Source of the DNA: an uncultured Gammaproteobacteria bacterium
GTDB lineage: Bacteria; Patescibacteriota; Microgenomatia; Levybacterales; UBA12049
Direction of reading: 5' to 3'
Assembly: GCA_964497535.1 (NCBI GenBank)
Contig: CAZCCG010000004.1
Span: 15,218 to 79,217, forward strand
Length of the DNA stretch: 64,000 nt
The notes beneath the pieces are model-generated. The model worked only from the letters and a program-made list of their open reading frames with translations, was not told the origin of the DNA and ran no database searches. Shown here in pieces: positions 8,342 to 58,706 of this stretch. The position numbers were made by a program, and so were the translations under genes. Positions within the stretch are counted from its first letter, which is position 1; each line of letters begins with the position of its first letter.

Positions 8342-10081
8342 TTAAATAAGCGTTTGGACTTTCTCCACAATTTCTTCTGCATAGAATGGTCTTCCGTCAT
8401 ATTTTCTCATATTATGGTTGACAGATAAACCTGTCTTTTCACGAATCAGTCCTTCAAACTGTCCGGTAAAATTTTCTTCTAAAATTAAGGTCTTTTTTGC
8501 GTTCTTAATAACTTGTGCTACAACTTCTGAAGGAAATGGATTCATATAGGCAACTTGTAAAAAATTTACGGTTATTCCTGTATCTTTTAATATACGCATT
8601 GCATCTAGAATTGGAAGTTTGGATGAACCAAACGCAAGCAGAGTTATTTGTGCATCAGATGGCCCTTGTAAATCAGGTGAGGAAATCTCCAATGTTGCTT
8701 GGTCCAGTTTTTTGAATCGTTTGGTCATCATTTTCACCCGTACCGTTGCTTCTTCATTGTATAACCCCTTTTCATCATGCTCATCAGAACCTGACAAGCC
8801 AATTCCTCCTTGTTGTCCCGGTATACTACGGGGAGAAACCCCATCATCTGTTAATTCATATCGTTTGTAATCTTGGATTTGTTTTGCCTGATCATCGTTC
8901 AATAATTTCCCTCGCTCAAGCTTAAAAGCTGCAGCATGATCTTTCAATACTGACTCAAGAACCGAAGCATGAGCTTCCATAATATATTTATCAACCAGTA
9001 CGATTACCTGTAACTGGTATTTTTCAGCCAAATTGAATGCCTGCATCGTATAGGTAAAAAGCTCGACCAGATCTCCGGGCGCTACAATAATACGAGGAAA
9101 ATCACCTTGTGCCGCATGCATTACAAACCGCAGATCTCCTTGATCCGTCCATGTCGGCATACCCGTTGCCGGTCCGGGTCTCATACCCATGATAATAACC
9201 AACGGAGTCTCTGTTTGTGCAGCAAGCCCCAGACTCTCTACCATGAGCGAAAAACCACCTCCGCTGGTAGCAACCATACTTCTGGCTCCGGCAAACGATG
9301 CACCCAGAGCCATATTGATTCCGGCAATTTCATCTTCTGGCTCTTTTGCCACAATGTTGTATTTCAATGCATGCGCTACAAGAGTTGTCATAACGCTATT
9401 AATGGGAGTCATGGGGTAAATTGCGGCGAATTTAAGTCCTGCTCGTATTGCCCCCAATGCAACTGCTTCTCCCCCTCCAAGAAGTATTTTTTCTTGAGGT
9501 TTTTTTTCTACCAATGCTTTGCAGGAAGAGGCAAAATGTTGCTTCACGTAATCAAACCCTGCCTTTGAAGTATTTATATTTTCCGCAATGACCGTTTCTC
9601 CTTTTCTGCCAAAAATATCCTGCAAAATTTTCTGTAATACTTCGTAATCAGGATAAAAAAGAGGCAGAGATGCCCCCACAGCGACAGTATTAACCATCAG
9701 ACGATCGGCTTTTACTTGTTGAGTCAACTCAAGAAATGGAACCGCCAACAATGATACCGTTACGGGAAATTCTCCATCTGCAATTTTTGTCATTGCCGGA
9801 TCATAGAGAACAAAAGCATTGGGTGCCAGTTCATCTTTATGCTTATCTATGGTATCTCGATTTAACGCAACCAGAATATCTACCGGCATTTTTTGAGAAT
9901 GTATTTCGACATCCGCAGCTCTGACATAATAAGCATTATGTCCACCCCGAATTAAAGAGGGATATTCCACATAATCAAAAACAGAAAGTCCAAGACGGGT
10001 AAAAATTTTTGACATCATCGTACCTACCGTCATGATGCCATATCCTGCTTCTCCACCAATTAACCACTGAATATCTACCAT
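8342..10081 (-). CDS. korA: 2-oxoacid:ferredoxin oxidoreductase alpha subunit (fused gamma-alpha, two-subunit OFOR type)
   Basis: 579 aa with an N-terminal gamma-like domain followed by the alpha transketolase-like domain. It lies directly upstream of korB. Confidence 0.9.
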   Translation of the reverse strand: MVDIQWLIGGEAGYGIMTVGTMMSKIFTRLGLSVFDYVEYPSLIRGGHNAYYVRAADVEIHSQKMPVDILVALNRDTIDKHKDELAPNAFVLYDPAMTKIADGEFPVTVSLLAVPFLELTQQVKADRLMVNTVAVGASLPLFYPDYEVLQKILQDIFGRKGETVIAENINTSKAGFDYVKQHFASSCKALVEKKPQEKILLGGGEAVALGAIRAGLKFAAIYPMTPINSVMTTLVAHALKYNIVAKEPEDEIAGINMALGASFAGARSMVATSGGGFSLMVESLGLAAQTETPLVIIMGMRPGPATGMPTWTDQGDLRFVMHAAQGDFPRIIVAPGDLVELFTYTMQAFNLAEKYQLQVIVLVDKYIMEAHASVLESVLKDHAAAFKLERGKLLNDDQAKQIQDYKRYELTDDGVSPRSIPGQQGGIGLSGSDEHDEKGLYNEEATVRVKMMTKRFKKLDQATLEISSPDLQGPSDAQITLLAFGSSKLPILDAMRILKDTGITVNFLQVAYMNPFPSEVVAQVIKNAKKTLILEENFTGQFEGLIREKTGLSVNHNMRKYDGRPFYAEEIVEKVQTLI

Positions 10082-10137
10082 ACTAGTAATTCCTGAACCA
10101 ATTATAAACTAAATCCACATGAATTCCAATATAATCA

Positions 10138-10170
10138 AACTATACGCTAAACGCTTATAACTAAACGCTG
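10138..10170. repeat. Copy B of the dispersed ACGCT-unit repeat ('aaactatacgctaaacgcttataactaaacgctg')
   Basis: Seen directly in the spacer between the ferredoxin gene and korA. It is about 94% identical to copy C at 60616. Confidence 0.55.
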
Positions 10171-10248
10171 ATTATTCACCATAGTGTACTTGAAATCATT
10201 TGCATTACGAAGATTCTAATTTAAAACTTTGCGCTTTGAACTTTCAAC

Positions 10249-10521
10249 TTACTGAGGCCAGACTTGTTTTACTTCATTTCCCGCTTCATCAACTTCAACG
10301 ATAATTATTGCGTTCACCGGACATGATTTTGAAGCATTCAGGATATTTTGTTCTGTGTCATTGATATCGGCATAGTTGACAAAATCCGATGTCATCGTGC
10401 CGTCCTTTTTCTTGATAACAGCTTTACCTTCACTATCCAGATCAAATGCCTGAGGAGCTACTGCGACACAACTTGCCGCACCAATACACATTTCTCGATC
10501 AACTTTTACTTTATATGGCAT
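10249..10521 (-). CDS. Small ferredoxin (single [4Fe-4S]/[3Fe-4S]-type cluster)
   Basis: 90 aa with 'MPYKVKVDREMCIGAASCVAVAP' and 'SCPVNAI'. It is adjacent to the OFOR genes. Confidence 0.8.
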   Translation of the reverse strand: MPYKVKVDREMCIGAASCVAVAPQAFDLDSEGKAVIKKKDGTMTSDFVNYADINDTEQNILNASKSCPVNAIIIVEVDEAGNEVKQVWPQ

Positions 10522-10525
10522 AGTT

Positions 10526-10909
10526 TTATGTTAGACAATCTTGAAGTACCGCAAAAGCCAACAGCGCACATTTCTTTCGTGTCTGCGAAACTTCAATTCC
10601 AAGTAAATTCAGCATATCGTTTTCGTTCATTTTTGTCAACTCTGCTTTTGTTTTTCCTTTTACGTGTTCGGTCAAAATTGACGCACTTGCTATAGCGATG
10701 GCACATCCTTTACCCTGAAACGAAATGTTTTTAATCCCTGTGTCCCTCCTGTCCCTTTTTCCCCCTTTGTCCCATTTTATATACAGTTCTATTTCATCTC
10801 CGCAAAAAGGATTTAATTGCGTTGAGGTACTATCAAATACGAACGGTTTTCCATAGTTTTGCGGCTCCCGATAATGCTCCAGAATTTCTTCTTTATATAG
10901 CATGTCCAT
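10526..10909 (-). CDS. sufU: SufU/IscU-like Fe-S cluster assembly scaffold (SUF-type NifU)
   Basis: 127 aa with 'FCGDEIEL', 'GKGCAIAIASAS' and a C-terminal 'KKCALLAF'. That gives three Cys plus an Asp, typical of SufU. Confidence 0.8.
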   Translation of the reverse strand: MDMLYKEEILEHYREPQNYGKPFVFDSTSTQLNPFCGDEIELYIKWDKGGKRDRRDTGIKNISFQGKGCAIAIASASILTEHVKGKTKAELTKMNENDMLNLLGIEVSQTRKKCALLAFAVLQDCLT

Positions 10910-10933
10910 AGGATAGTTATTTTACCATATTCA

Positions 10934-11704
10934 CTACACCTCTATTGTAACTATCAAAGGCAGATGATCTGAGATATCCACTTGAGGCATACAATGCTCT
11001 GCAACCGCAATATCCGAACTTACAAATACCATATCTACCACTGCTGTTGCATACCCCGGATTTTTCTTTTGTTTCATATTAAAAGTAGAAACCAGTTCGT
11101 CTTTAAAAACATTTTTGAGATGTTTTTGGATATTTTGAATCGTTTGGGTAGCCGGACGTAAATTAAAATCTCCTGCCAGAATAACTGAATCCATATCTTG
11201 AATTTGGTCAATAATTGTATTACTCATATGTATCCTCCGCGGGTTATCCCCACCGTCTAATCCCCATATCCCATGAGTATTAAAAAGATGTAAATTTTTA
11301 TGAGGCAATTGGACGATTACATGTTGCAGGTTATGCGGCCAGAAAGTAAAATCTCCATCTTTTTTCGCATTTTCTTCATTTTCACTATATTCACCATACG
11401 GTACATCATAAAAAATTGTTTCTTTTTCTTCCAATGGAAATTTAGAAAAAATTGCGTTTCCCTGATCTACTTTTCCAAAGTCTGCCCTGTCTAGCATCTC
11501 GGCGGCAAAACGTACATAAGGAAGTGATAACTCAAGCTGTAATACCTCAACTGTTCGATATCGCCGCTCCCACTTTGAATTGGTACCGTTATAAACTTCT
11601 TGGAGACAGAGTATATCTGCATTTGCATTTTTTAAAAAATGCAAAAGGTTATCCATGAACCTTCCCCCATGCAAAATATTGAGATTAATTATTTTTAGTT
11701 TCAT
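10934..11704 (-). CDS. Endonuclease/exonuclease/phosphatase (EEP) family protein
   Basis: 256 aa with 'ILCLQEV' at the N-terminus and 'SDHLPL' at the C-terminus. Confidence 0.8.
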   Translation of the reverse strand: MKLKIINLNILHGGRFMDNLLHFLKNANADILCLQEVYNGTNSKWERRYRTVEVLQLELSLPYVRFAAEMLDRADFGKVDQGNAIFSKFPLEEKETIFYDVPYGEYSENEENAKKDGDFTFWPHNLQHVIVQLPHKNLHLFNTHGIWGLDGGDNPRRIHMSNTIIDQIQDMDSVILAGDFNLRPATQTIQNIQKHLKNVFKDELVSTFNMKQKKNPGYATAVVDMVFVSSDIAVAEHCMPQVDISDHLPLIVTIEV

Positions 11705-12398
11705 CTTCTGTTAGCAGATTGTATAAGACAGGAAACAGTTTTTCTTCCCATTTTGAATATTCTTTTGCACTCGGATGGAGACCATCATATGTCTGTAATG
11801 TTCTATCATTTCCCATTTCTTTTGACAAGCCTGTTACATCAACAACCGGTATACTGCGTCTTTGTGCTTCTTCTTTAATAATCTGGTTGAATTGGTTGAT
11901 TTGTACTAGAACAGTATCTTTACCATAATATTTATGCCAAAATGGTGTCACTGAAAAATCAGGAATTGTCAAAAGTACGATCTTATTCTTTTGCGGCAGC
12001 CGTGATTGAATATAATCTAGAATATAAGAAAGGTTTTTTGCAAATGTTTCAGAAGAAACTCCCTGGACTATATCATTCGTACCCAGCATTACCGTAGCAA
12101 TGATTGGATGAGATGAATCAACAACAGGTAATTCAAATTCTATGGCATCTTGTGTTGTATACCCTGTTATCGAAGGATTTGCTACTAATGTAATCGGTAT
12201 TCCCGCAGATTGTAAGTGCCGGGTTACCAGTGATGGGTAATTATGAGCAGTATCAACATTTTGACCAATAGTATATGAATCACCAATTGCGATATAAGCA
12301 ATTGTAGCGTTATTATTTTTTATCGGAACGTTGGGGACTTTCTGCATAACAATAACTACCAGAAATAATACCACTACAATCGTTAGAACTTTACGCAC
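11685..12398 (-). CDS. SGNH/GDSL hydrolase family protein (secreted)
   Basis: 237 aa with a signal peptide and the blocks 'IGDSYT', 'GTND' and 'DGLHPS'. Confidence 0.8.
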   Translation of the reverse strand: MRKVLTIVVVLFLVVIVMQKVPNVPIKNNNATIAYIAIGDSYTIGQNVDTAHNYPSLVTRHLQSAGIPITLVANPSITGYTTQDAIEFELPVVDSSHPIIATVMLGTNDIVQGVSSETFAKNLSYILDYIQSRLPQKNKIVLLTIPDFSVTPFWHKYYGKDTVLVQINQFNQIIKEEAQRRSIPVVDVTGLSKEMGNDRTLQTYDGLHPSAKEYSKWEEKLFPVLYNLLTEDETKNN

Positions 12399-12422
12399 AT
12401 TGAAAGTATACCAAATACTATA

Positions 12423-13196
12423 TTACTGTAGGTTATATTTTTGTTTGAGGTTATACAAAAACCGGTCTTTTACTACAATATCCTGCAATATTTCAAGTTC
12501 CATCTTATCAAATAACTTATCTTTCTCCTCTTTAGATTTTTTAAGCCACGAGTACCACTGTGATTTTTTGAGTGATTGGTAATTAGCGGCAATCCTGATA
12601 ATTGCATTTTCTATTGTCGAATATACGTTGTGTAATTGTTCAACCGAATAGTCTTCTATATGTTCTATTGATTGTTTCTCATGTATTTGAGCCAGTGTTG
12701 CATAATCATGCTTGCGATATGCTATATTAATCTGCTTCATAATTTCTTCCCTGTTTTTTCTATCATCCGGGCTTTGTGCCAAATCCGGATGAAATAAATG
12801 AACTAATTTTTTCCAAAGTTTTTTAATATCTTCTTTTTCTTCTCCCTCAGTTTCCTCAAAAGCACTCATATCAAAAAAGAACGATTCATCGGATTCATCT
12901 GATTTCCTGAATTGTTTCTTTACTTCTTTCAAAGCCTCTTCATAAGACAAACCTTTATCCATAAGACTATTTATCTTTTTATATTGTATGATTTGCAAAT
13001 CCAAAGCATTATCGCGAATATAGTGGGTGCCGACACGCCGGTTATATTCCTGTTGGACTGCGGTAATTCGCATTTCAAGCTCTTCATATTTTTCAGTGAC
13101 GGTAAAAAGAGCTTTTTTACGCTTTTCGATCACTTTTTGCAATCGTTGTTGTTCTTTCTCCAAATCGCTGAGATGAAGTATCAGATTATTTTGCAT
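12423..13196 (-). CDS. J-domain (DnaJ-like, HPD motif) protein with an N-terminal coiled coil
   Basis: 'LWKKLVHLFHPDLAQSPDDRKNREEIMKQINIAYRK' is J-domain-like. I trimmed the start to the internal ATG at 13196, because the 50 codons upstream in the track ORF cover a structured non-coding region. Confidence 0.6.
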   Translation of the reverse strand: MQNNLILHLSDLEKEQQRLQKVIEKRKKALFTVTEKYEELEMRITAVQQEYNRRVGTHYIRDNALDLQIIQYKKINSLMDKGLSYEEALKEVKKQFRKSDESDESFFFDMSAFEETEGEEKEDIKKLWKKLVHLFHPDLAQSPDDRKNREEIMKQINIAYRKHDYATLAQIHEKQSIEHIEDYSVEQLHNVYSTIENAIIRIAANYQSLKKSQWYSWLKKSKEEKDKLFDKMELEILQDIVVKDRFLYNLKQKYNLQ

Positions 13197-13261
13197 ATGA
13201 ATTGTATATGATATCAAAAATGTGGGAAAATAACAAAAAGACAGCCTGAAAACGCAAATAG

Positions 13262-13357
13262 CGCCGAGTGAAAAAGGCGTTCTTGCTGACGAATAGTCAA
13301 AAACTGTGCAATGTACAGTTACTGATATGTATCGATCGGAAACCAATCACTCGGCGC
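13262..13357. repeat. Long-range inverted repeat GCGCCGAGTG ... CACTCGGCGC (10 bp arms, ~76-nt spacer)
   Basis: Seen directly. It lies upstream of the J-domain gene and at the 5' edge of the GC-rich segment. Confidence 0.4.
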
Positions 13358-13830
13358 TTGAAAGCACCTGAGAAAAGAATTGTTAGGCAGGGGAGAGACG
13401 GGGAATATCCCCGCCTCTCCCCACAACCACCCGCAAGAGAAGCGTAGCGATCAGCTCCTGGCGAAGTGGCCGGCCAACGGGGTGAGGGCGGACGAAGTCA
13501 GGCCATGGATCTTTGGCACATGCTGTGCTAACATCGGTACCTCCCCGAAACGACACTCGGGACTACCCCGAGTTGTCAAAAAAACCACCAAGGGTTTGCC
13601 AGAGAAAAGCTCCCGCTAGGCCGTAGCGAGACGGGAGATGTGGCGAAGATGGACGAAACCCAGACCCCCCTGATCAGATCCCAAACCAAATGGGCGAGTC
13701 GCGAGACCGAACCATGTGGTACCCCCCATTAAAACGGATCCGCAGTTTATTCCTGCAAGGGCAGCCCTTTCTCCACACCACCTACAGTCCTAGGTGGCCA
13801 GTGGAAAGAAAAGATAAATAGTTATCTACT
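13346..13830. other. GC-rich, highly structured non-coding segment; candidate large structured RNA or foreign DNA; strand unknown
   Basis: It is ~55-60% GC against a ~36% background. A 14-bp hairpin GGGGAGAGACGGGG-AATAT-CCCCGCCTCTCCCC lies at 13390-13422, with further stems at 13546-13562 and 13777-13798. It holds duplicated modules ('CGTAGCGA...GGCGAAG' twice), and all six reading frames are closed. Confidence 0.35.
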
Positions 13831-14005
13831 CATTCCACCGGTCACACTAAAAAATGGTATACAATTCTTAATAAACTCAACGTGCTAAAAAAAGAGAGGA
13901 ATTATTTATATGGCTGAATTTAGCTCTACAATAACTCCTGCCAAACGAAATACTAACAGAGATGATATACAAAATCAATAACCATTTCTTTGATATAATC
14001 ACGAG

Positions 14006-14500
14006 ATGGAATACAAAAATGTAGTTACAAATTTCGTGAAGGCATGGAATTTTACCAGGTCCGAAACCGTAGAAATCCTGCAGAGTCTCGATGATGATAA
14101 ATTACAGTTTCAACCAAAAGGAGAAAAGTGGCAATCGCTCTATTGGCAATTTGGCTGCATGGGGCGAACCCAGATAGTCTATACGCAGGCAATTATAACT
14201 GGCCGTATGGATTTTTCGCTCTTTCATTCAGACCAACTTCCGAAAAAGAATGATTTTCAGACAAAAGAGCAAATACAGGATTTTTTGGGAAAAGCGAATA
14301 AGGATTGGAGAGAGGCAATTGTATCACGAAGAAAAGAGGAAAATTTTACAGTGAAGTGGCCGGGATTTAACAAACCATTCATTAACCACATAGCAAGCCT
14401 TGCAGAACATGAACGGCTCCATCATGGACAATTGATTTCTTATTTTACAATGGCTGATTTTCAATTACCAAAAATCTTTAAATCAAATTGGGCATTATAA
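14006..14500 (+). CDS. DinB/YfiT-like (DinB_2 superfamily) metal-dependent protein
   Basis: 164 aa with a C-terminal 'SLAEHERLHHGQL' His cluster typical of the DinB family. The gene is AT-rich, and an extended -10 TGATATAAT sits 6 nt before the ATG. Confidence 0.65.
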   Translation: MEYKNVVTNFVKAWNFTRSETVEILQSLDDDKLQFQPKGEKWQSLYWQFGCMGRTQIVYTQAIITGRMDFSLFHSDQLPKKNDFQTKEQIQDFLGKANKDWREAIVSRRKEENFTVKWPGFNKPFINHIASLAEHERLHHGQLISYFTMADFQLPKIFKSNWAL

Positions 14501-14763
14501 CTACCTCTTTAAACGATTGAGCGCCGTGAATTAAAAGAACTTGAGAGATTGTGGTATACAACTGTCACTTCATTATGCAACAACTGTTACGCATTCTCTT
14601 CTGCTCCAATCCACGGCGCAATGGGAACCAAAACATACGAAAATCCTTTCGAAAAAGCGATGGAACACCCACCGGACAGCAAGGTAGGGCTCCTTACCGA
14701 TCCGATGGGTGTCTCCCAAAGCTTTAGCCAGACGGCTGAGTTGCCATCAGGCTACCGGATAGA

Positions 14764-15084
14764 TCAACCGGGACGGGGAGACAGGCCGAGCTGAGTTCTC
14801 ATCTTGGGATCGGACAAGACCACCACGAGCGTAGCGACGAGATACAGAACCACGAGGACTGGGACTGCCGGCAAGGCTAAATTTGCCACTGCCACCCAAG
14901 CCAGGACGGCACCGCCGCCGTAGACCCCGAAGGCTACCAATGCAGGGGTCGAGCCCTTCTCCAGCATGAGAAGCACTACGCCCAAGACAATCATGGGAGC
15001 CAAAAGCGCCACGCCGAGCATGAGCCGGTCGACCAGGAATAAAGAAACCACGTAGGCTGCCAGAGGCACGAGAACTCGCAACAT
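14764..15084 (-). CDS. Small hydrophobic membrane protein (3 predicted TM helices), GC3-rich and foreign-looking
   Basis: 106 aa, rich in Ala, Val and Leu. A consensus SD 'AAGGAGGA' lies 7 nt upstream of the ATG. It is about 60% GC, in sharp contrast to its neighbours. Confidence 0.5.
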   Translation of the reverse strand: MLRVLVPLAAYVVSLFLVDRLMLGVALLAPMIVLGVVLLMLEKGSTPALVAFGVYGGGAVLAWVAVANLALPAVPVLVVLYLVATLVVVLSDPKMRTQLGLSPRPG

Positions 15085-15416
15085 GTTGTTGTCCTCCTTG
15101 GACTGAAACGAACCACGTGCAGCTTCACCTATCCTCCTTTCTCCATGACTCTACGAGTCTTGAATGAAAGTGCCCTGTAGGACCAGGCGAAGAACCGCCA
15201 AGAAAAGACTTATATAAATCTTCTCTTGGCGATTCTCAGCCCGAACACATACCTATCTAAAAGAATTTTCGTAATTGTTAATGTACAGAAAAATTGGCAG
15301 AATAATACAAAACGCATTTTGCTTTGTACTATGGATTGCCAGAAGCATCGTAACAACGGACGAGCAAAAAGAATGTAATTCAGATTACATACTTACAAGT
15401 CATAGAGGATTATAGT

Positions 15417-16631
15417 TTATTTTTCGAGAAATATTTTTTGTGCCTTTTTAATTCCTTTTATCAGATTATCTACATCTTTTTTATCATTATAGAGATAAAA
15501 ACTGACACGTGCTGTCGCCGGTAATCCCAATGTTGTATGCAAAGGCATTGCACAATGATGTCCGGCACGGATACAAATCCCCTCTTCACCTAAAACTTGC
15601 GCAATATCATGAGGATGGATTCCATCAATTGTAAAACTAATAATTCCACTCCTCTTGGTACTAACTTTTGGTCCATATATTCGCATTCCTTCAATCTTTT
15701 CCATACACTCTAAGCAATACGCTATTAGCATTCTCTCCTGTTTTGCAATCGTATCCATTCCAATACTGTCCAGATAATCAATAGCTGCACCCAGACTAAT
15801 AATTCCCGAAATATCAGGAGTTCCTGCTTCAAACTTATCGGGAACCTTAGCAAACGTTGTCTGATCAATTGTAACTTTCCTAACCATTTCCCCACCAAAT
15901 AAAAAGGGAGGCATGTCCTCAAGTAATTTTTTCCGACCATATAAGACCCCTATTCCTGTTGATGCCATCATTTTGTGTCCGGAGAATACCAGAAAATCAC
16001 ATCCCAAATCCTGAACATCAACTTTCATATGAGGGACAGATTGCGCAGCATCTACTAAAACTATTAAACTCGGATTTATCTTTTTACAATCAGCTATTAT
16101 TTTTTTTAATGGATTTATTGTTCCCAAAACATTTGATACATGAGTAATCGCTAATAATTTCGCCTTTTTAATATTTAATATTTTATCTTTAATATCGAGG
16201 AAACCATTATCATTAATACCAATAACTTCAAACAAAACTTGCTTTTTTAAAGCAAGTTGCTGCCAAGGAACAAAGTTACTATGATGTTCCATAATCGTCC
16301 CTGCGATTACATCATCAGGATTTATATTTATATCTCCCCACGTATTCATGACCAAGTTAATTGCCTCAGTAGTATTGCGAACAAAAATAATCTCTGATGA
16401 TTCTGAAGCATTCAGAAATGCTGCAACTTTTTGTCTTACTTCTTCAACTTTTGCAGTAGCTCTCTCAGCAATTGGATAAAGCCCCCGCTTTACATTCGCA
16501 TTATAATTTTTGTAATAGTTCATCAGGGCATCCAAAACTATCTGAGGTTTTTGACTCGTTGCCGCAGAATCCAAATAAACTAACTTCTTATTATTTTTTA
16601 AAATCGGAAAATCGTTTTTATAACTTTTCAT
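15417..16631 (-). CDS. sufS: Cysteine desulfurase SufS (class V aminotransferase)
   Basis: 404 aa with a PLP-lysine region 'SGHKMMASTGIGVLYG'. It is in the suf operon. Confidence 0.9.
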   Translation of the reverse strand: MKSYKNDFPILKNNKKLVYLDSAATSQKPQIVLDALMNYYKNYNANVKRGLYPIAERATAKVEEVRQKVAAFLNASESSEIIFVRNTTEAINLVMNTWGDININPDDVIAGTIMEHHSNFVPWQQLALKKQVLFEVIGINDNGFLDIKDKILNIKKAKLLAITHVSNVLGTINPLKKIIADCKKINPSLIVLVDAAQSVPHMKVDVQDLGCDFLVFSGHKMMASTGIGVLYGRKKLLEDMPPFLFGGEMVRKVTIDQTTFAKVPDKFEAGTPDISGIISLGAAIDYLDSIGMDTIAKQERMLIAYCLECMEKIEGMRIYGPKVSTKRSGIISFTIDGIHPHDIAQVLGEEGICIRAGHHCAMPLHTTLGLPATARVSFYLYNDKKDVDNLIKGIKKAQKIFLEK

Positions 16632-34058: not shown

Positions 34059-34109
34059 ATGGTATAAAATATCAAAAATTAAACATTAAATATATTTCAT
34101 ATTTACTAT

Positions 34110-34541
34110 TTAATATTTACTATGAATCATTATCTCTCTCCTATTTCCTCCCAAATCTCTGAAATGAATTTCTGTTCTTTTTTCAGGTAATAACTTCCCG
34201 AGCTTTTCCGGCCATTCGATTACTACAATAGCATTTTTATCTTCTAATAACTCCCCCAGACCTATATTCTTTAAATCAACCTCTGTTTGTGTTCTGTATA
34301 AATCGATATGATACAAACTCTTTCCTTTTATTTCATATTTCCTTGCAATAATAAATGTAGGAGAAATGATGCGTTGTTCAATTCCTAACCCTTTTGCCAA
34401 ACCTTGCACAAAAGTAGTTTTACCACTTCCTAAATCACCATATAACAAAAGGGCAACTCCGGGTGTTATTTGTTTTGATAAAATACTACCCGCTGATTGC
34501 GTTTCTTCAAAGCTCTTTGTCTCTATTCTACTTTCTCCCAT
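34110..34541 (-). CDS. tsaE: tRNA t6A biosynthesis ATPase TsaE (YjeE)
   Basis: P-loop 'GDLGSGKTTF'. Confidence 0.85.
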   Translation of the reverse strand: MGESRIETKSFEETQSAGSILSKQITPGVALLLYGDLGSGKTTFVQGLAKGLGIEQRIISPTFIIARKYEIKGKSLYHIDLYRTQTEVDLKNIGLGELLEDKNAIVVIEWPEKLGKLLPEKRTEIHFRDLGGNRREIMIHSKY

Positions 34542-38363: not shown

Positions 38364-38399
38364 ACATTGATTTTCTTTCCTTCGGAAATTAAAATACTA

Positions 38400-38843
38400 T
38401 TACAGCACTTCTATCTTCCCAACATCCATTAACCATCCTGCTTTCTGAGCTTTTTGCGTCTGTCCCCATACTTTTACTTTGTGCTTTAAATACTTTGATA
38501 AATCAATAATTGATGACGTCAAATATACATTTTGGCTGTCTCCTCCCGGTCGTACTAAATGATATTGACCTTCTCCATCAATACCCCCATCCTGCAAAAC
38601 TCCTTCTGTTGTATCTTTAAATGTTTCAATATCGTTCGTGCCCTCAACTGTTCCTTTGGCAACTGATGCCCCTCCTACTGAAGGAATAGCAGAACTCAAA
38701 CTTCCCCCTTGAGCACGAGGAGCTATGATATATCCTGTTCCGATACCTAACATGGCAACAACAACTAAAACCAAAATAACCTTTCCGGTCATCAATGGCC
38801 CGTCTGTTTGGTTAAAATCATGAAGTAATGAAGAATCATTCAT
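38400..38843 (-). CDS. Hypothetical membrane-anchored protein
   Basis: 147 aa with one TM helix. No homology was recognised. Confidence 0.35.
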   Translation of the reverse strand: MNDSSLLHDFNQTDGPLMTGKVILVLVVVAMLGIGTGYIIAPRAQGGSLSSAIPSVGGASVAKGTVEGTNDIETFKDTTEGVLQDGGIDGEGQYHLVRPGGDSQNVYLTSSIIDLSKYLKHKVKVWGQTQKAQKAGWLMDVGKIEVL

Positions 38844-39105
38844 AATCTGTTATATCTTTCACCTCCCTCTCTTTTTATTACTATTAATAGAAGAACTAAG
38901 TCCTATAAATATATTATAGGCAACTCCCGCAAAACCCGATTGGGTGAGAGGGGATAGGTTACTCTTTAAGTAAAGCATAAATCCTTGTTTTTGGCAACCC
39001 TACGGCTTCATAAATTCCCTGTTTGAAGCTAAAATCATGTACGAAAATTGAGAGTATTTTATAATTATTACACTAAAATAGATGAGATGTCAAAAATGAG
39101 AACCA

Positions 39106-48809: not shown

Positions 48810-48964
48810 GCTTCTATTTTACCATATTTCACCTGTATCTGTCTGTTTTAAAACCAATAAAAACCCCCACACGAGGGTTCGGGCAGGGGTTTTACCAACT
48901 GATCAATTGGTAATTGAACACTAATTTGTCAAAAAAGACAATGACAAATTAGCAACTTACCAAT

Positions 48965-49033
48965 TTATCTTCTTGTCTTTCTTTTTGCTGTCTTTTTCTT
49001 TGCTGCTTTTTTTACTTTTCTTTTTGCTGCCAT
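48965..49033 (-). CDS. Very basic 22-aa peptide (MAAKRKVKKAAKKKTAKRKTRR); candidate small ribosomal or nucleoid-associated protein
   Basis: Near-perfect SD 'AAGGAGGTGA' 6 nt upstream of the ATG. It lies between serS and secA on the same strand and is followed by a GC hairpin and T-run. It is too short for the ORF track. Confidence 0.3.
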   Translation of the reverse strand: MAAKRKVKKAAKKKTAKRKTRR

Positions 49034-49340
49034 GTCAATCACCTCCTTCTTCCTGTCTAAAATGAATTCTTTTTATGCAAGAAATACAGGTTAAGTTAAG
49101 TGTGAAATAATAAAAAATATTTGTCAAGCATTTTTCATTGCCTCAAAATCATTTATTTAGATTGATATATCAATAAAAATCATCATGTGTAAATTATTAC
49201 TTTTTTTTTACATGTGAGGCTAAATAATAAAAAATATTTGAAGCAAAAAATTTTAGATTTCTTATTATAAATTTATTATTACTAAATAAAATTTAATTAA
49301 CAAATTTTTCAGAAACTAATTGAGTAGAAATTATGGAGTA

Positions 49341-54857: not shown

Positions 54858-55766
54858 TCAATAACCTCTAGTATGACCAGCCTCAAATTCTATCTTATAG
54901 GACTTTGAATGCAGCTTCCGTACTATCGACTGGTATTTGTTTAAACTATATGTTCGATAGTCAAACGGATGAAAAGCAAGCAGAGTATCCGATATAGTTT
55001 CATTGGTAATTCCTTTTTTCATATACCAATATTGAATTTTTTTAGCAATGGGTTCCAATAGTAGCGCTCCGTGTAATAGAATGGAATTTTTATGAGGCTT
55101 TTTAAAAAATGGTGTACTAAAGGCCCTGGCATTTGGTAAATAGACTTGTGTCCATCTGTTCTTTTCAAAGAATCGTTTATATACATCAGAACGTTCAAAC
55201 AAAGGAACCATTTGAGTAATTTCATGTGCCGTAAAAAGATCATGTCTTTTTTTTGGAAGTTGCATGGAATCTTGCGTGACAAGCATATTCACACATATTT
55301 TATTTGAGGTATGCTTTCCCAGTTTTTTCCGTCTTTTTCCCAAAAATTCCAAAACTATGAGTAGTAAGAAACGGCTGATCCATAATGCCCTTGGATACGT
55401 AATAATAAAAAAATCAATATCGTCGTTTTCCGAAGCATTGTGGATAGCAACTCCTCCACTTAATCCTATAAAACTAATTGTAGGAATCGCACTTAGTAAG
55501 CGTGCTACCTTTTTTGCTTTATAATATTTTTCTTGGCTTATTTTTTCTCTTTGTAACCGCTTTTTAACAATAGATTCACTCCCTTTAAGCATATAATACC
55601 CTTGTTGATAGGAAACAACGGAGGAAACCTGGGTAAGAGCTTTCTTCAATGCACGTTTTGAATAGAATTTATCTGCTATCAGATATCTCCATAATTCATC
55701 TTCATTTAAAGGAAAATGAAAAATACCGGCATAGATAAGGGTTTGAAGAATGAGACTACCGTCCAT
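54858..55766 (-). CDS. Nucleotidyltransferase-fold (Pol-beta superfamily) protein, function unknown
   Basis: 'GLSGGVAIHNASENDDIDFFII' matches the G[SG]...[DE]x[DE] NTase signature. Confidence 0.4.
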   Translation of the reverse strand: MDGSLILQTLIYAGIFHFPLNEDELWRYLIADKFYSKRALKKALTQVSSVVSYQQGYYMLKGSESIVKKRLQREKISQEKYYKAKKVARLLSAIPTISFIGLSGGVAIHNASENDDIDFFIITYPRALWISRFLLLIVLEFLGKRRKKLGKHTSNKICVNMLVTQDSMQLPKKRHDLFTAHEITQMVPLFERSDVYKRFFEKNRWTQVYLPNARAFSTPFFKKPHKNSILLHGALLLEPIAKKIQYWYMKKGITNETISDTLLAFHPFDYRTYSLNKYQSIVRKLHSKSYKIEFEAGHTRGY

Positions 55767-57243
55767 ATTGGTTCAATACGGAGTTTACTCCTTGAGCAAG
55801 AGTTGCAACTACAGTCTGCACTGAAGAATTACTCAGCAATGAGTTAATAGCATTTTCCATATATCCATTGAGGACAGCATTAAAGCTATCTTCCGCCTTT
55901 GCATTTACCTGAATAAAAGGAGAAGAAACAGCAGTAGCCGCCTGACTTACAAAAGGTGCTACAAGTGGATTGTCTTTCACGCTGGCCGCTAAATCAGTCC
56001 GGGCATACGGCTCGCCAAATAAGCGGGTTTTTGATTCTTCCGCGAATAATTTCTGCTCTGTTTCTTTCTGAGTAAGATATTTCATGAAAAGTAAGGCTTC
56101 CTTTTGATGTTTGCTTTTTGCAGATACCCCCTCTACCCAATAGCTGGCTATTGTCATGTCGCGTCCCGGTAAATGAGGCACCGGATATACTCCGAAATTC
56201 AAGTTGGGATTCATACTTTTTATCGTAAATATATCCCATGAGTATCCTAAGTACATTGCAAGATTCCCTTTGGAAAACGCAATAATAGATTCATCAAGTG
56301 TATCATTCCAAACGTTATTTGAACTTTTTGCAAAACCCGTATAATACTCAAATGCTTTTTGAGCATTGGCAGATGTAGCGGTAAAATCGGTAAATTTTGC
56401 TCCGGATTGCGCTAGAAATAAGGAAATAATATCAGGTGCATGGGTAATGTTGCTATAAGTACCCAGTGCAGCACCGGCTGTTTTTATTTTACCATCACTA
56501 TCTTTTACTGTCATTTCCTGTGCAGCTCGTGTAAAATCATTCCAATCAGTTGGAACTTGTCTTCCGCTTGCCTTGAGAATATCCTCATTAACAAAAAGTG
56601 CCAGATTATCAATTTCAATAGGAATTCCATAAATCGCGCCATTTTTTACAAGATCGGAATATGCAACAGGATAGAAATTTGTTTTGAACTCTGCTGGCGT
56701 AATCACGTCCGATGACATGGGAAGTAAAATCCCGGATAGTGGCAAAACCCAGGTATTATGGAAACGGAAAATATCAGGACCGGTACCGTTTTTAACCCGG
56801 GTAAGAAGGCGCTGCTGATATTGATCACTATCCTGCTGTACATACTCTATCGTAATAGTAGGATATTTATGCCCAAAGTCTGAAATAATACTCTGCATTG
56901 TATTTTTATCTTCCCATAACCCCCAATAGGTAAGTGTTACCTTTTCAGGTTTTTTATTGAAGAATGAAGAAACCCCAGAGATTATTAAAAAAAGTAATCC
57001 ACCCGCAATCAACACAGCAACTATTCCTATCAATAGTTTTTTTATTGGAAATGATGAAGGAGGAGATGGTGGAGGCATTGACGGCGGAGGTGATGACACA
57101 ACAGGAGGAGATGGTGGCACAGCCGCAGCTTCTTGAGGCTGTCTACTATCAGGCTCTGGCTGCAGTTGTACCGGTGGTGTACTGGTTGAAGCCGCACTCG
57201 GTGCAGCTTGCTGATTTTTTGAGGGATATAAATTATCATCCAT
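55756..57243 (-). CDS. ABC transporter substrate-binding protein (family 1, sugar-type) with a Pro-rich N-terminal region and a TM anchor
   Basis: SBP_bac_1-like body. I chose the ATG at 57243, because the track ORF start at 57285 would overlap the divergent vanW-like gene. Confidence 0.7.
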   Translation of the reverse strand: MDDNLYPSKNQQAAPSAASTSTPPVQLQPEPDSRQPQEAAAVPPSPPVVSSPPPSMPPPSPPSSFPIKKLLIGIVAVLIAGGLLFLIISGVSSFFNKKPEKVTLTYWGLWEDKNTMQSIISDFGHKYPTITIEYVQQDSDQYQQRLLTRVKNGTGPDIFRFHNTWVLPLSGILLPMSSDVITPAEFKTNFYPVAYSDLVKNGAIYGIPIEIDNLALFVNEDILKASGRQVPTDWNDFTRAAQEMTVKDSDGKIKTAGAALGTYSNITHAPDIISLFLAQSGAKFTDFTATSANAQKAFEYYTGFAKSSNNVWNDTLDESIIAFSKGNLAMYLGYSWDIFTIKSMNPNLNFGVYPVPHLPGRDMTIASYWVEGVSAKSKHQKEALLFMKYLTQKETEQKLFAEESKTRLFGEPYARTDLAASVKDNPLVAPFVSQAATAVSSPFIQVNAKAEDSFNAVLNGYMENAINSLLSNSSVQTVVATLAQGVNSVLNQYGR

Positions 57244-57269
57244 AGCTAATACTACATTTATAGTATAAT

Positions 57270-58706
57270 ATGAGCGAAGAATCAATGAAACAAGTTATTT
57301 TTATCCACAAGAAATACATTGCCCCAAAATTACGAGTATTTTTTTGGTTTTCCACCGGAGCACTTCTTGGACTCTTTTTTTTGGTAAGTTTTGCTTTTAT
57401 TTATTTCGAAAAGACATACTCCAATCAAATCTATCCTGGTATTATGGTCAACGGAACAAACTTTGGCGGGAAAACAAAAGATGCTGTTGAAACATTTTAT
57501 GCTAAAAAAAATAAATCAATTGAAAACACAAAATTTGTATTTCAAATTATGGACAGCCAAGCTTCAATTTCGGCTAAAGACTTAAAATTGGGATATGACG
57601 AAAAGCTTTTAGCAAATCAGGCTTACAGTATTGGCCGTTCGGATAATGCATTTTCCAACATCAGCTTGATTATGCAAGCGTATCTGAATGGTCTTAATCT
57701 TCCTCCTTCTTATAAATACTCTCAAAATGCATTGGATACAGTATTGTTACCCCTCAAAAAAGACCTGACAGTTGCTCCTGTGGATGCTCTTTTTACATTT
57801 GAAAATGGAAAAGTGACAGCATTTCGACCTTCGTCAAACGGACAAGAACCAGACATACAATCTGTACAAACAAAAATCTCATCCCTGATACCTACTTTGT
57901 TTTATGAAAGGAACCCTCAATTGGTTAAGCTTACCATTCCTATCAAAGATGTAAAACCTTCAGTATCAACAGATGAAGTAAATTCATTTGGTATCCGAGA
58001 ACTCATTGGAACCGGAACATCTCTTTTTCAAGGTTCATCTGATACTCGAATTTTCAATGTTACCCTCGCATCCAGTAAAGTAAATGGGGTATTAATCCCA
58101 CCCAACGAAACATTTTCATTTAATAAGGTCTTAGGAGATATCTCATCGTTCACGGGATTTAAGCAAGCATATGTTATAGAGAATGGTAAAACAGTACTGG
58201 GTGACGGTGGAGGAGTATGCCAAGTATCAACCACGCTCTTTCGTGCAGTTTTAGATGCAGGGCTTCCTATTGTCGAACGCCATGCCCATGCGTATAGGGT
58301 ACATTACTATGAGGAAGACTCACCACCCGGTATTGATGCTACTATTTATATACCAGGTGTAGATTTCAAATTCAAAAATGATACTGGACATTCAATCCTG
58401 GTTCAAAGTGTTGTTGATCCACAAACACTTCGATTAACATTTTATTTGTATGGAACAAAAGATAATCGTGAAATCAGTATGAGCCAGCCGGTTATAACTT
58501 CACAAACCCCTGCTCCGGAGCCAAGTTACCAGGATGATCCTACTCTTCCAAAAGGAACAGTCAAGCAAGTTGACTTTGCTGCAGCAGGAGCAACTATTTA
58601 TTTCACTCGTACGGTAAAAAAGAATGGAAAAACAATTATTACCGATCGTTTCGATTCAAATTTCAAACCTTGGCAAGCAGTATTTTTACGCGGCACAAAA
58701 GAATAA
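57270..58706 (+). CDS. VanW-family protein, membrane-anchored
   Basis: 'GGGVCQVSTTLFRAVLDAGLPIVERHAH' is the VanW-domain core. Confidence 0.8.
   Translation: MSEESMKQVIFIHKKYIAPKLRVFFWFSTGALLGLFFLVSFAFIYFEKTYSNQIYPGIMVNGTNFGGKTKDAVETFYAKKNKSIENTKFVFQIMDSQASISAKDLKLGYDEKLLANQAYSIGRSDNAFSNISLIMQAYLNGLNLPPSYKYSQNALDTVLLPLKKDLTVAPVDALFTFENGKVTAFRPSSNGQEPDIQSVQTKISSLIPTLFYERNPQLVKLTIPIKDVKPSVSTDEVNSFGIRELIGTGTSLFQGSSDTRIFNVTLASSKVNGVLIPPNETFSFNKVLGDISSFTGFKQAYVIENGKTVLGDGGGVCQVSTTLFRAVLDAGLPIVERHAHAYRVHYYEEDSPPGIDATIYIPGVDFKFKNDTGHSILVQSVVDPQTLRLTFYLYGTKDNREISMSQPVITSQTPAPEPSYQDDPTLPKGTVKQVDFAAAGATIYFTRTVKKNGKTIITDRFDSNFKPWQAVFLRGTKE

Follow-up and report, generated by a model that had tools for sequence, protein, structure and literature searches.

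What are the two GC-rich patches that lie at the junction of sufS and nifU in an otherwise AT-rich, Levybacteria-like (Patescibacteria) genome? The window analyzed here, the whole 64-kb stretch of contig CAZCCG010000004.1 (assembly GCA_964497535.1), has a mean G+C (GC) content of 37.6%; in 150-nt windows, GC islands appear at ~13300–13825 and ~14580–15210, with peaks of 0.63–0.65, and we refer to them as the left and right arms. Both patches, at ~13360–13800 and ~14600–15200, are of 55–60% GC, and no other strong GC patch occurs anywhere in the 64 kb, in agreement with an original prediction, made from the letters of this stretch, that two GC-rich arms stand here. The same prediction took the arms for related structured elements at the ends of one decayed mobile or integrative element, with a DinB-like gene between them as cargo. 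We read the locus differently. In our preferred account, which we judge about evenly poised between right and wrong, the arms are two separate, predicted leftward transcription units of foreign composition, lodged in a 4.5-kb lineage-specific insertion between sufS and nifU. Transcription of both modules would use the minus strand and run codirectionally with the suf-nifU operon around them. The right module would be self-contained, comprising a 5′ hairpin, a structured Shine-Dalgarno leader, a gene for a 106-aa protein (open reading frame 106, ORF106), a terminator-like hairpin, and a 99-nt rod; the left module would have the same layout of hairpin, terminator hairpin, and rod, with a 374-nt body that is non-coding and strongly structured. 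The DinB gene, which lies between the modules but is encoded on the other strand, would then be an ordinary gene of host style rather than the cargo of a composite element, and the modules themselves may have come by horizontal transfer, both via one route.

The right unit is made up of the following features, listed from its 5′ end.
15186–15241, minus strand: H_R, a hairpin of 27 bp whose apex is AT-rich and which contains AAGAAAAGA on the plus strand.
15085–15241, minus strand: the structured 5′ leader of ORF106, which includes H_R and a second hairpin closed by CUUUC/GAAAG.
14764–15084, minus strand: ORF106, encoding a 106-aa protein with four hydrophobic segments.
14665–14712, minus strand: T_R, a long hairpin rich in GC, with a U-rich tract after it.
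14521–14619, minus strand: E2, a 99-nt rod hairpin with the foot GCGCCGTGAATT / AATCCACGGCGC, in which 11 of 12 positions pair.

ORF106 is a protein-coding gene, as its codon periodicity, its ribosome-binding site, and the protein-like layout of its segments all attest. The chi-square of base by codon position is 44 (p = 7e-8), twice the maximum of 22 reached by 500 stop-free shuffles, and every 90-nt window between ~15095 and 14766, but none beyond that span, shows a concentration of T at the second codon position. A strong ribosome-binding site, AAGGAGGA, lies at 15092–15099, 7 nt upstream of the ATG. Such sites are rare here: in a survey of the starts of the 57 ORFs of at least 150 aa in the window, a Shine-Dalgarno sequence was absent from most genes, and a strong AGGAGG-type site was present in only ~4, those starting at 762, 31956, and 37686 together with ORF106. 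The GC content at codon positions 1, 2, and 3 is 0.70, 0.40, and 0.69, the last far from the third-position value (GC3) of 0.26–0.36 in host genes. Charged residues are restricted to positions 3, 19–20, 42–43, and 92–104, and an AlphaFold2 model is all-helical with a pLDDT of 81; a Foldseek comparison of this model with the PDB gave no match at E ≤ 0.001. ORF106 likewise had no accepted match in Pfam, NCBIfam, PHROGs, or PADLOC, where its sole profile match, a weak one to Dexa_ind, fell under the cut-off and was dismissed. The product is thus best described as a predicted small membrane protein without homologue, an orphan. Excess RNA folding is confined to the flanks of the gene: ORF106 itself scores z = 0 against shuffled sequence, its leader (15085–15250) z = −9.0 on the minus strand versus −4.4 on the plus strand, and its 3′ region (14620–14763) z = −5.3. 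As a separate observation, a locus of an unrelated AT-rich genome (L003, 37% GC) carries a foreign-looking coding gene of 55–63% GC at 14838–15613, then a CCCAGGAGG...CCTCCTGGG hairpin, with no similarity to the arms.

The left unit has a different kind of interior, and its features, again from the proposed 5′ end, are these.
13797–13848, minus strand: H_L, the hairpin that bounds the left unit on its 5′ side; its foot is GC-rich, its apex AT-rich, and it contains AAGAAAAGA on the plus strand.
13423–13796, minus strand by analogy with the right unit: the left-arm body, 374 nt of ~57% GC, non-coding and highly structured.
13390–13422, minus strand: T_L, a GC-rich hairpin of 15 bp whose minus-strand pairing is perfect (one G·U), then a U-rich stretch.
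13260–13358, minus strand: E1, a rod hairpin of 99 nt whose 12-bp foot, AGCGCCGAGTGA / TCACTCGGCGCT, is perfectly paired and whose interior has 40% GC.

No codon periodicity is found in the left arm in any frame or at any window scale, and its ORFs of 79, 57, and 46 aa show neither periodicity nor a family match. The region 13360–13850 folds far better than its shuffles (plus-strand z = −5.4, minus-strand z = −4.3), and both halves contribute; control regions (the DinB gene, sufS, the J-domain gene, and the equally GC-rich ORF106) score ~0. Because the body is non-coding and structured, it may be a non-coding RNA or a non-coding relative of the same cassette type as the right unit. The notion that it is a decayed ORF106 paralogue was rejected, since tblastn gave no match and local periodicity was absent. 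Two further observations concern this arm. A 27-codon ORF, MLAQHVPKIHGLTSSALTPLAGHFARS, lies on the minus strand at 13451–13534, with GGAGG (the complement of 13540–13544) 5 nt upstream of its ATG; such an ORF is, on a rough estimate, compatible with chance. The arm also contains an internal repeat of the form CGTAGCGA-N(9–12)-GGCGAAG-W-TGG, present twice, ~180 nt apart (13443–13466 and 13622–13648), and the right arm is without this form.

These properties raise the alternative that the left arm encodes a new, large structured non-coding RNA that functions in its own right and perhaps partners the right-arm membrane protein in the way that OLE RNA works with the membrane protein OapA. Some ~450 nt of 57% GC stand here in a genome of 37.6% GC, with a folding excess that the equally GC-rich ORF106 does not share; the arm has no coding signal, and its neighbor is the orphan gene ORF106, whose product has four hydrophobic segments. 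It also fits an established search criterion for large non-coding RNAs, namely long GC-rich intergenic regions in AT-rich genomes (PMC6429828, PMC8723152). A search of the left arm against 4,227 Rfam families, among them RNase P, tmRNA, group I/II introns, OLE, GOLLD, ROOL, and HEARO, gave no match, and at E ≤ 10 the whole of 13100–15450 yielded only hairpin-type noise. On the other side, there is no second example and hence no covariation, and the tie to ORF106 is one of proximity. The left arm is not a conserved core RNA, since it lies in an insertion that is absent from the nearest relatives. We consider an independently functioning RNA of this kind improbable.

What the two units share is found at their boundaries. 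On the plus strand both follow the same order: a rod, an A-rich spacer of 31–45 nt, a GC hairpin, a GC-rich body, and a hairpin with AAGAAAAGA at its apex. The rods E1 and E2 each lie at the left edge of their arm, have GCGCCG...CGGCGC feet, and enclose interiors of 36–40% GC; the pattern GCGCCG-N(60–90)-CGGCGC occurs twice in the 64 kb, at E1 and E2 with spacers of N(85–87), and in none of 100 shuffles. Positions 7, 10, and 11 distinguish the feet of the two rods without loss of pairing, the copies are ~55–60% alike (alignment z = 3.0), and their starts are 1,260 nt apart. E1 folds with a z of about −5.5 to −6.2, and E2 begins 20 nt past the DinB stop, between the convergent DinB gene and ORF106. 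H_L and H_R resemble each other at z = 2.6–3.5. The view of the arms as related structured elements thus stands as far as their boundary hairpins go; the right arm, however, is mostly protein-coding, so that the two are not RNAs of one kind.

The computed stabilities of these hairpins on the two strands are as follows.
H_R: minus strand −40.1 kcal/mol (5 G·U pairs), plus strand −25.1.
T_R: minus strand −37.5 kcal/mol, plus strand −25.9.
E2: minus strand −41.4 kcal/mol (7 G·U pairs), plus strand −31.1.
T_L: minus strand −32.9 kcal/mol, plus strand −28.7.
H_L: minus strand −22.0 kcal/mol, plus strand −20.9, so that the strands differ only slightly.
E1: minus strand −36.4 kcal/mol, plus strand −39.4, the plus strand being slightly more stable.

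Four of the six (H_R, T_R, E2, and T_L) are therefore 4–15 kcal/mol more stable on the minus strand, because A·C mismatches on the plus strand become G·U pairs on the minus strand. This asymmetry indicates that they are probably RNA-level elements of minus-strand transcripts, in agreement with the orientation of ORF106; for the left unit, the strand would be assigned mostly by analogy with the right unit. T_L looks like a terminator of the left unit and T_R like that of ORF106. Most plausibly, the hairpins would work at the RNA level, the H hairpins as 5′ stabilizers, the T hairpins as terminators, and the E hairpins as 3′ rods. Minus-strand transcripts would then begin near 15241–15340 and 13848–13945 and would end at T_R/E2 and T_L/E1, respectively.

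Similar ends around unrelated interiors could also mean something else, and the main rival on the route of arrival is that the units are mobile and cassette-like, with the rods (and perhaps the H hairpins) serving as DNA sites for recombination or transposition, of the attC, miniature inverted-repeat transposable element (MITE), or IS200/IS605 type, and with the enzyme encoded elsewhere. The two 99-nt palindromes 1.26 kb apart fit both attC length and cassette spacing, the interiors are foreign in composition, the insertion junction is variable among relatives (see below), and the pairing of the rod feet has been kept despite sequence change. The sites themselves speak otherwise. Neither strand of E1, E2, H_L, or H_R, taken with 10–15 nt of flank, contains an RYYYAAC/GTTRRRY core, and no target-site duplication is visible at the rods, whose flanks read AAAT/TGAA (E1) and ATTG/AATG (E2). 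No integrase, recombinase, or transposase is found across 1–35 kb, which confirms the earlier statement that the island holds no recombinase, and in a search of the arms for a transposase gene or its remnant, no arm ORF had a match in Pfam, NCBIfam, or PHROG. There are just two rods in 64 kb: other intergenic GC-footed inverted repeats are lacking in the window and in ~100 kb of the relatives' loci. Finally, the exchange of A·C for G·U in E2, H_R, and T_R suggests an RNA function and not one of a duplex or cruciform. We regard mobilization through the rods as unlikely. Still less do we expect a combination of the last two ideas, in which both units would be small mobile RNA/gene cassettes of an undescribed kind in candidate-phyla bacteria, ended by a 5′ hairpin and a 99-nt GC-footed rod, with the left one a new large non-coding RNA possibly acting with the ORF106 protein.

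Several results weigh against our own account of two transcription units. The left-arm folding excess is slightly better on the plus strand, which leaves the strand of that unit uncertain, and neither T_L nor T_R has a canonical U-tail directly after its stem. The collinear likeness of the whole units is weak, at z = 1.9–2.5 when regional composition is preserved. Promoter calls are weak as well, a scan for promoter and terminator consensus sequences having found nothing above shuffle expectation. For ORF106, phmmer against 1.84 billion representatives returned only the protein itself and two low-complexity matches; and the arms, ORF106, and the rods together have no homologue in plasmids, phages, viral or metagenome contigs, or protein libraries, so that we are dealing with a single instance. 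Function thus stays inferred from intrinsic signals, because there is one instance to draw on.

The evidence that had linked the arms in the first place was a set of shared short motifs, which exist but whose stated coordinates were off by 0–1 nt. The 9-nt motif GCGTAGCGA is exact at 13442 and 14829 only, while the third site claimed for it, at 13621, reads CCGTAGCGA and matches at 8 of 9 positions; the shorter 8-mer CGTAGCGA does occur at 13443, 13622, and 14830. GGCGAAG is present at 13460, 13642, and 15186 and has 6 copies in the window versus 3.6 expected, a count reached in 13 of 100 shuffles. AATGTACAG, reported at both arm edges, is found at 13310 and 15280, the second copy outside the right arm, and 5 of 100 shuffles reach two copies. 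As a null for sharing between the arms, the two GC-rich arm cores were compared with their own dinucleotide shuffles (300). The cores have 4 9-mers in common (1.6 ± 1.6 in shuffles, 33 of which reach 4) and 27 7-mers (21.6 ± 5.6, with 54 reaching 27), and their best local alignment scores 23 versus 21 ± 2. By k-mer sharing and by alignment, then, the kinship inferred from 7–9-nt motifs is at chance level.

Between the arms lies the supposed cargo.
14006–14500, plus strand: a DinB_2-family gene (Pfam E = 1.3e-8) of host-like composition, with a leaderless-type promoter.

The gene had been correctly recognized as AT-rich and DinB-like. Its promoter had been called host-style and leaderless, an apt label, since most genes in the window lack a Shine-Dalgarno sequence and many, within the 57 ORFs surveyed, have a TATAAT-like box 6–12 nt upstream of the ATG; in this gene TGATATAAT, at 13991–13999, ends 6 nt upstream of the ATG. 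The placement of these boxes just upstream of ATGs suggests that the mRNAs may be leaderless. A composite element, of which the arms would be decayed ends and this gene the cargo, draws on the facts that the arms flank it in the same orientation with similar boundary hairpins and that DinB homologues sit in differing contexts in other genomes, so that the gene does move. These homologues are 60–65% identical, and their contexts are unrelated, not syntenic, and without GC islands. The arm bodies, however, cannot be aligned, they hold no trace of a transposase or recombinase (the left arm has no coding signal, and the only ORF of the right arm encodes a small membrane protein), the gene has host composition and a host-style promoter, and the inserted block described below reaches 2.3 kb beyond the left end of that proposed element. 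Arms as inverted or direct terminal repeats of one element are thus not supported, and we consider the composite model largely refuted already and its truth very unlikely.

Our preferred account places both units in an insertion relative to Levybacteria loci.
10904–15416, no strand assigned: the lineage-specific 4.5-kb block, between nifU (10526–10903) and sufS (15417–16631).

The block contains genes for an EEP nuclease/phosphatase, a GDSL lipase, and a J-domain protein, then the left arm, the DinB gene, and the right arm; the EEP, GDSL lipase, and J-domain genes are all of host-like composition. By sequence the window SufS is closest to proteins of Candidatus Levybacteria (Microgenomates), at 67–68% identity, so the relatives available for comparison are distant. 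Two of them, L025 and L026 (GCA_001782355.1 and an ENA contig), carry sufC-B-D-S, nifU, ferredoxin, POR alpha/beta, DUF4446, DUF3048, and SecD, and the gene order of the window agrees with theirs on both sides of the junction over >8 kb. In both, 27 nt separate the sufS stop from the nifU ATG (L025 9225–9254). A comparison with close relatives for a clean empty site had been proposed as a check, and such a site is indeed there, although the inserted block proves to be 4.5 kb, with three further host-like genes, and not a 1.9-kb element. In L024 the same junction is occupied by a NUDIX gene together with two small ORFs (9212–10498). The sufS-nifU junction is thus variable in the lineage, because it spans 27 nt in L025 and L026, holds other genes in L024, and holds 4.5 kb here. 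No arm-like GC island and no similarity to the arms were found in the relatives' loci, and Rfam applied to five of these loci at the gathering threshold gave nothing credible. The J-domain gene offers no further anchor: a scan of genome contigs with its protein returned only matches of 36–47% identity, and its homologues (≤38% identity) are not syntenic. Exact look-ups of the window proteins mostly returned nothing.

The sequence comes from a metagenome-assembled genome, and no homologue of the arms was found, so we also weighed an assembly chimera or a meaningless accident of composition. Two Logan contigs (run SRR9179562) span the J-domain gene, left arm, and DinB gene, and the DinB gene, right arm, and sufS, respectively, at 100% identity. 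A chimera is therefore unlikely, because these contigs reproduce all junctions; chance, for its part, is far from accounting for the ORF periodicity, the folding z-scores, or the pair of rods. We find this explanation extremely improbable. The two contigs end and begin inside the DinB gene, with a 12-nt overlap at 14083–14094, for which a drop in coverage or a variant are guesses.

We looked for a second instance of the units in several collections. In distant mode, blastn of each arm against plasmids and of the whole island against phages gave no match. The rod pattern matched 15 times in viral contigs, and we take these matches to be random because all lie in GC-rich phage DNA; its one match in metagenome contigs is also random and GC-rich. 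An exact left-arm 22-mer had no metagenome match.

The remainder of the window provides a background for these results. A GC content of 0.56–0.59 is also reached at 9025–9361, in the POR alpha gene, and at 57025–57249, in the ORF at 55756–57285; both are probably coding, unlike the intergenic arms, because they lie inside long ORFs. The long gaps between ORFs of at least 150 aa, at 38364–39105, 48810–49340, and 34059–34522, are AT-rich, opposite in composition to the arms; the segment 49001–49500 has a GC content of 24%, and there are AT-rich palindromes at 34067–34118 and 49153–49294. The whole 64 kb has no tRNA gene, nor a tmRNA by ARAGORN, and no match to an Rfam family at the gathering score.

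If our account is right, accessory and foreign DNA amounting to 4.5 kb has been tolerated as an insertion in the essential sufCBDS-nifU operon of a reduced candidate-phyla genome, and the junction that received it is a variable spot. The locus supplies two orphan candidates: a small membrane protein and a structured RNA ~0.45 kb long. Should more rod-bounded units exist, they would constitute a new cassette-like vehicle for the transfer of genes and RNAs in Patescibacteria; as a single instance, the locus has its value mainly as a lead.

How do these units compare with known systems? They differ from composite transposons and other insertion sequence-bounded elements in that the arms are not alignable copies. 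The left arm resembles OLE, GOLLD, ROOL, and raiA in being a long GC-rich non-coding intergenic region of an AT-rich genome with an excess of predicted structure, but differs from them in that it is single, has no Rfam match, and is absent from the nearest relatives. The rods recall ERIC/IRU, Correia, RUP, and MITE-like repeats, being ~100 bp long, with terminal inverted repeats, intergenic, and beside gene ends; like ERIC- and Correia-type repeats, they fold into long RNA rods with G·U pairs on one strand. Unlike these families, they number two copies in 64 kb, both tied to GC-rich modules and not scattered. With integron cassettes and clusters of attC sites lacking an integron integrase (CALIN), the likeness is one of architecture: E1 and E2 fall within the range of at least two palindromic sites of 57–141 nt within 4 kb, and each sits where its unit ends on the 3′ side. 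The contents of the two units are unrelated, look foreign, and are in part non-coding, and no integrase is nearby. The rods lack the R″/R′ core motifs, however, they are separated by a host-type gene that is encoded on the opposite strand, and their asymmetry suggests an RNA function. Moron-like or islet units offer a further parallel. The right arm stands outside any recognizable prophage, has no clear promoter, carries an extra 99-nt rod, and has a non-coding sister unit, which sets it apart from them; as in those units, it consists of one small gene with its own ribosome-binding site, a structured leader, and a terminator-like hairpin, with a GC3 of 0.69 versus ~0.3 in the host, placed between genes that are adjacent in relatives.

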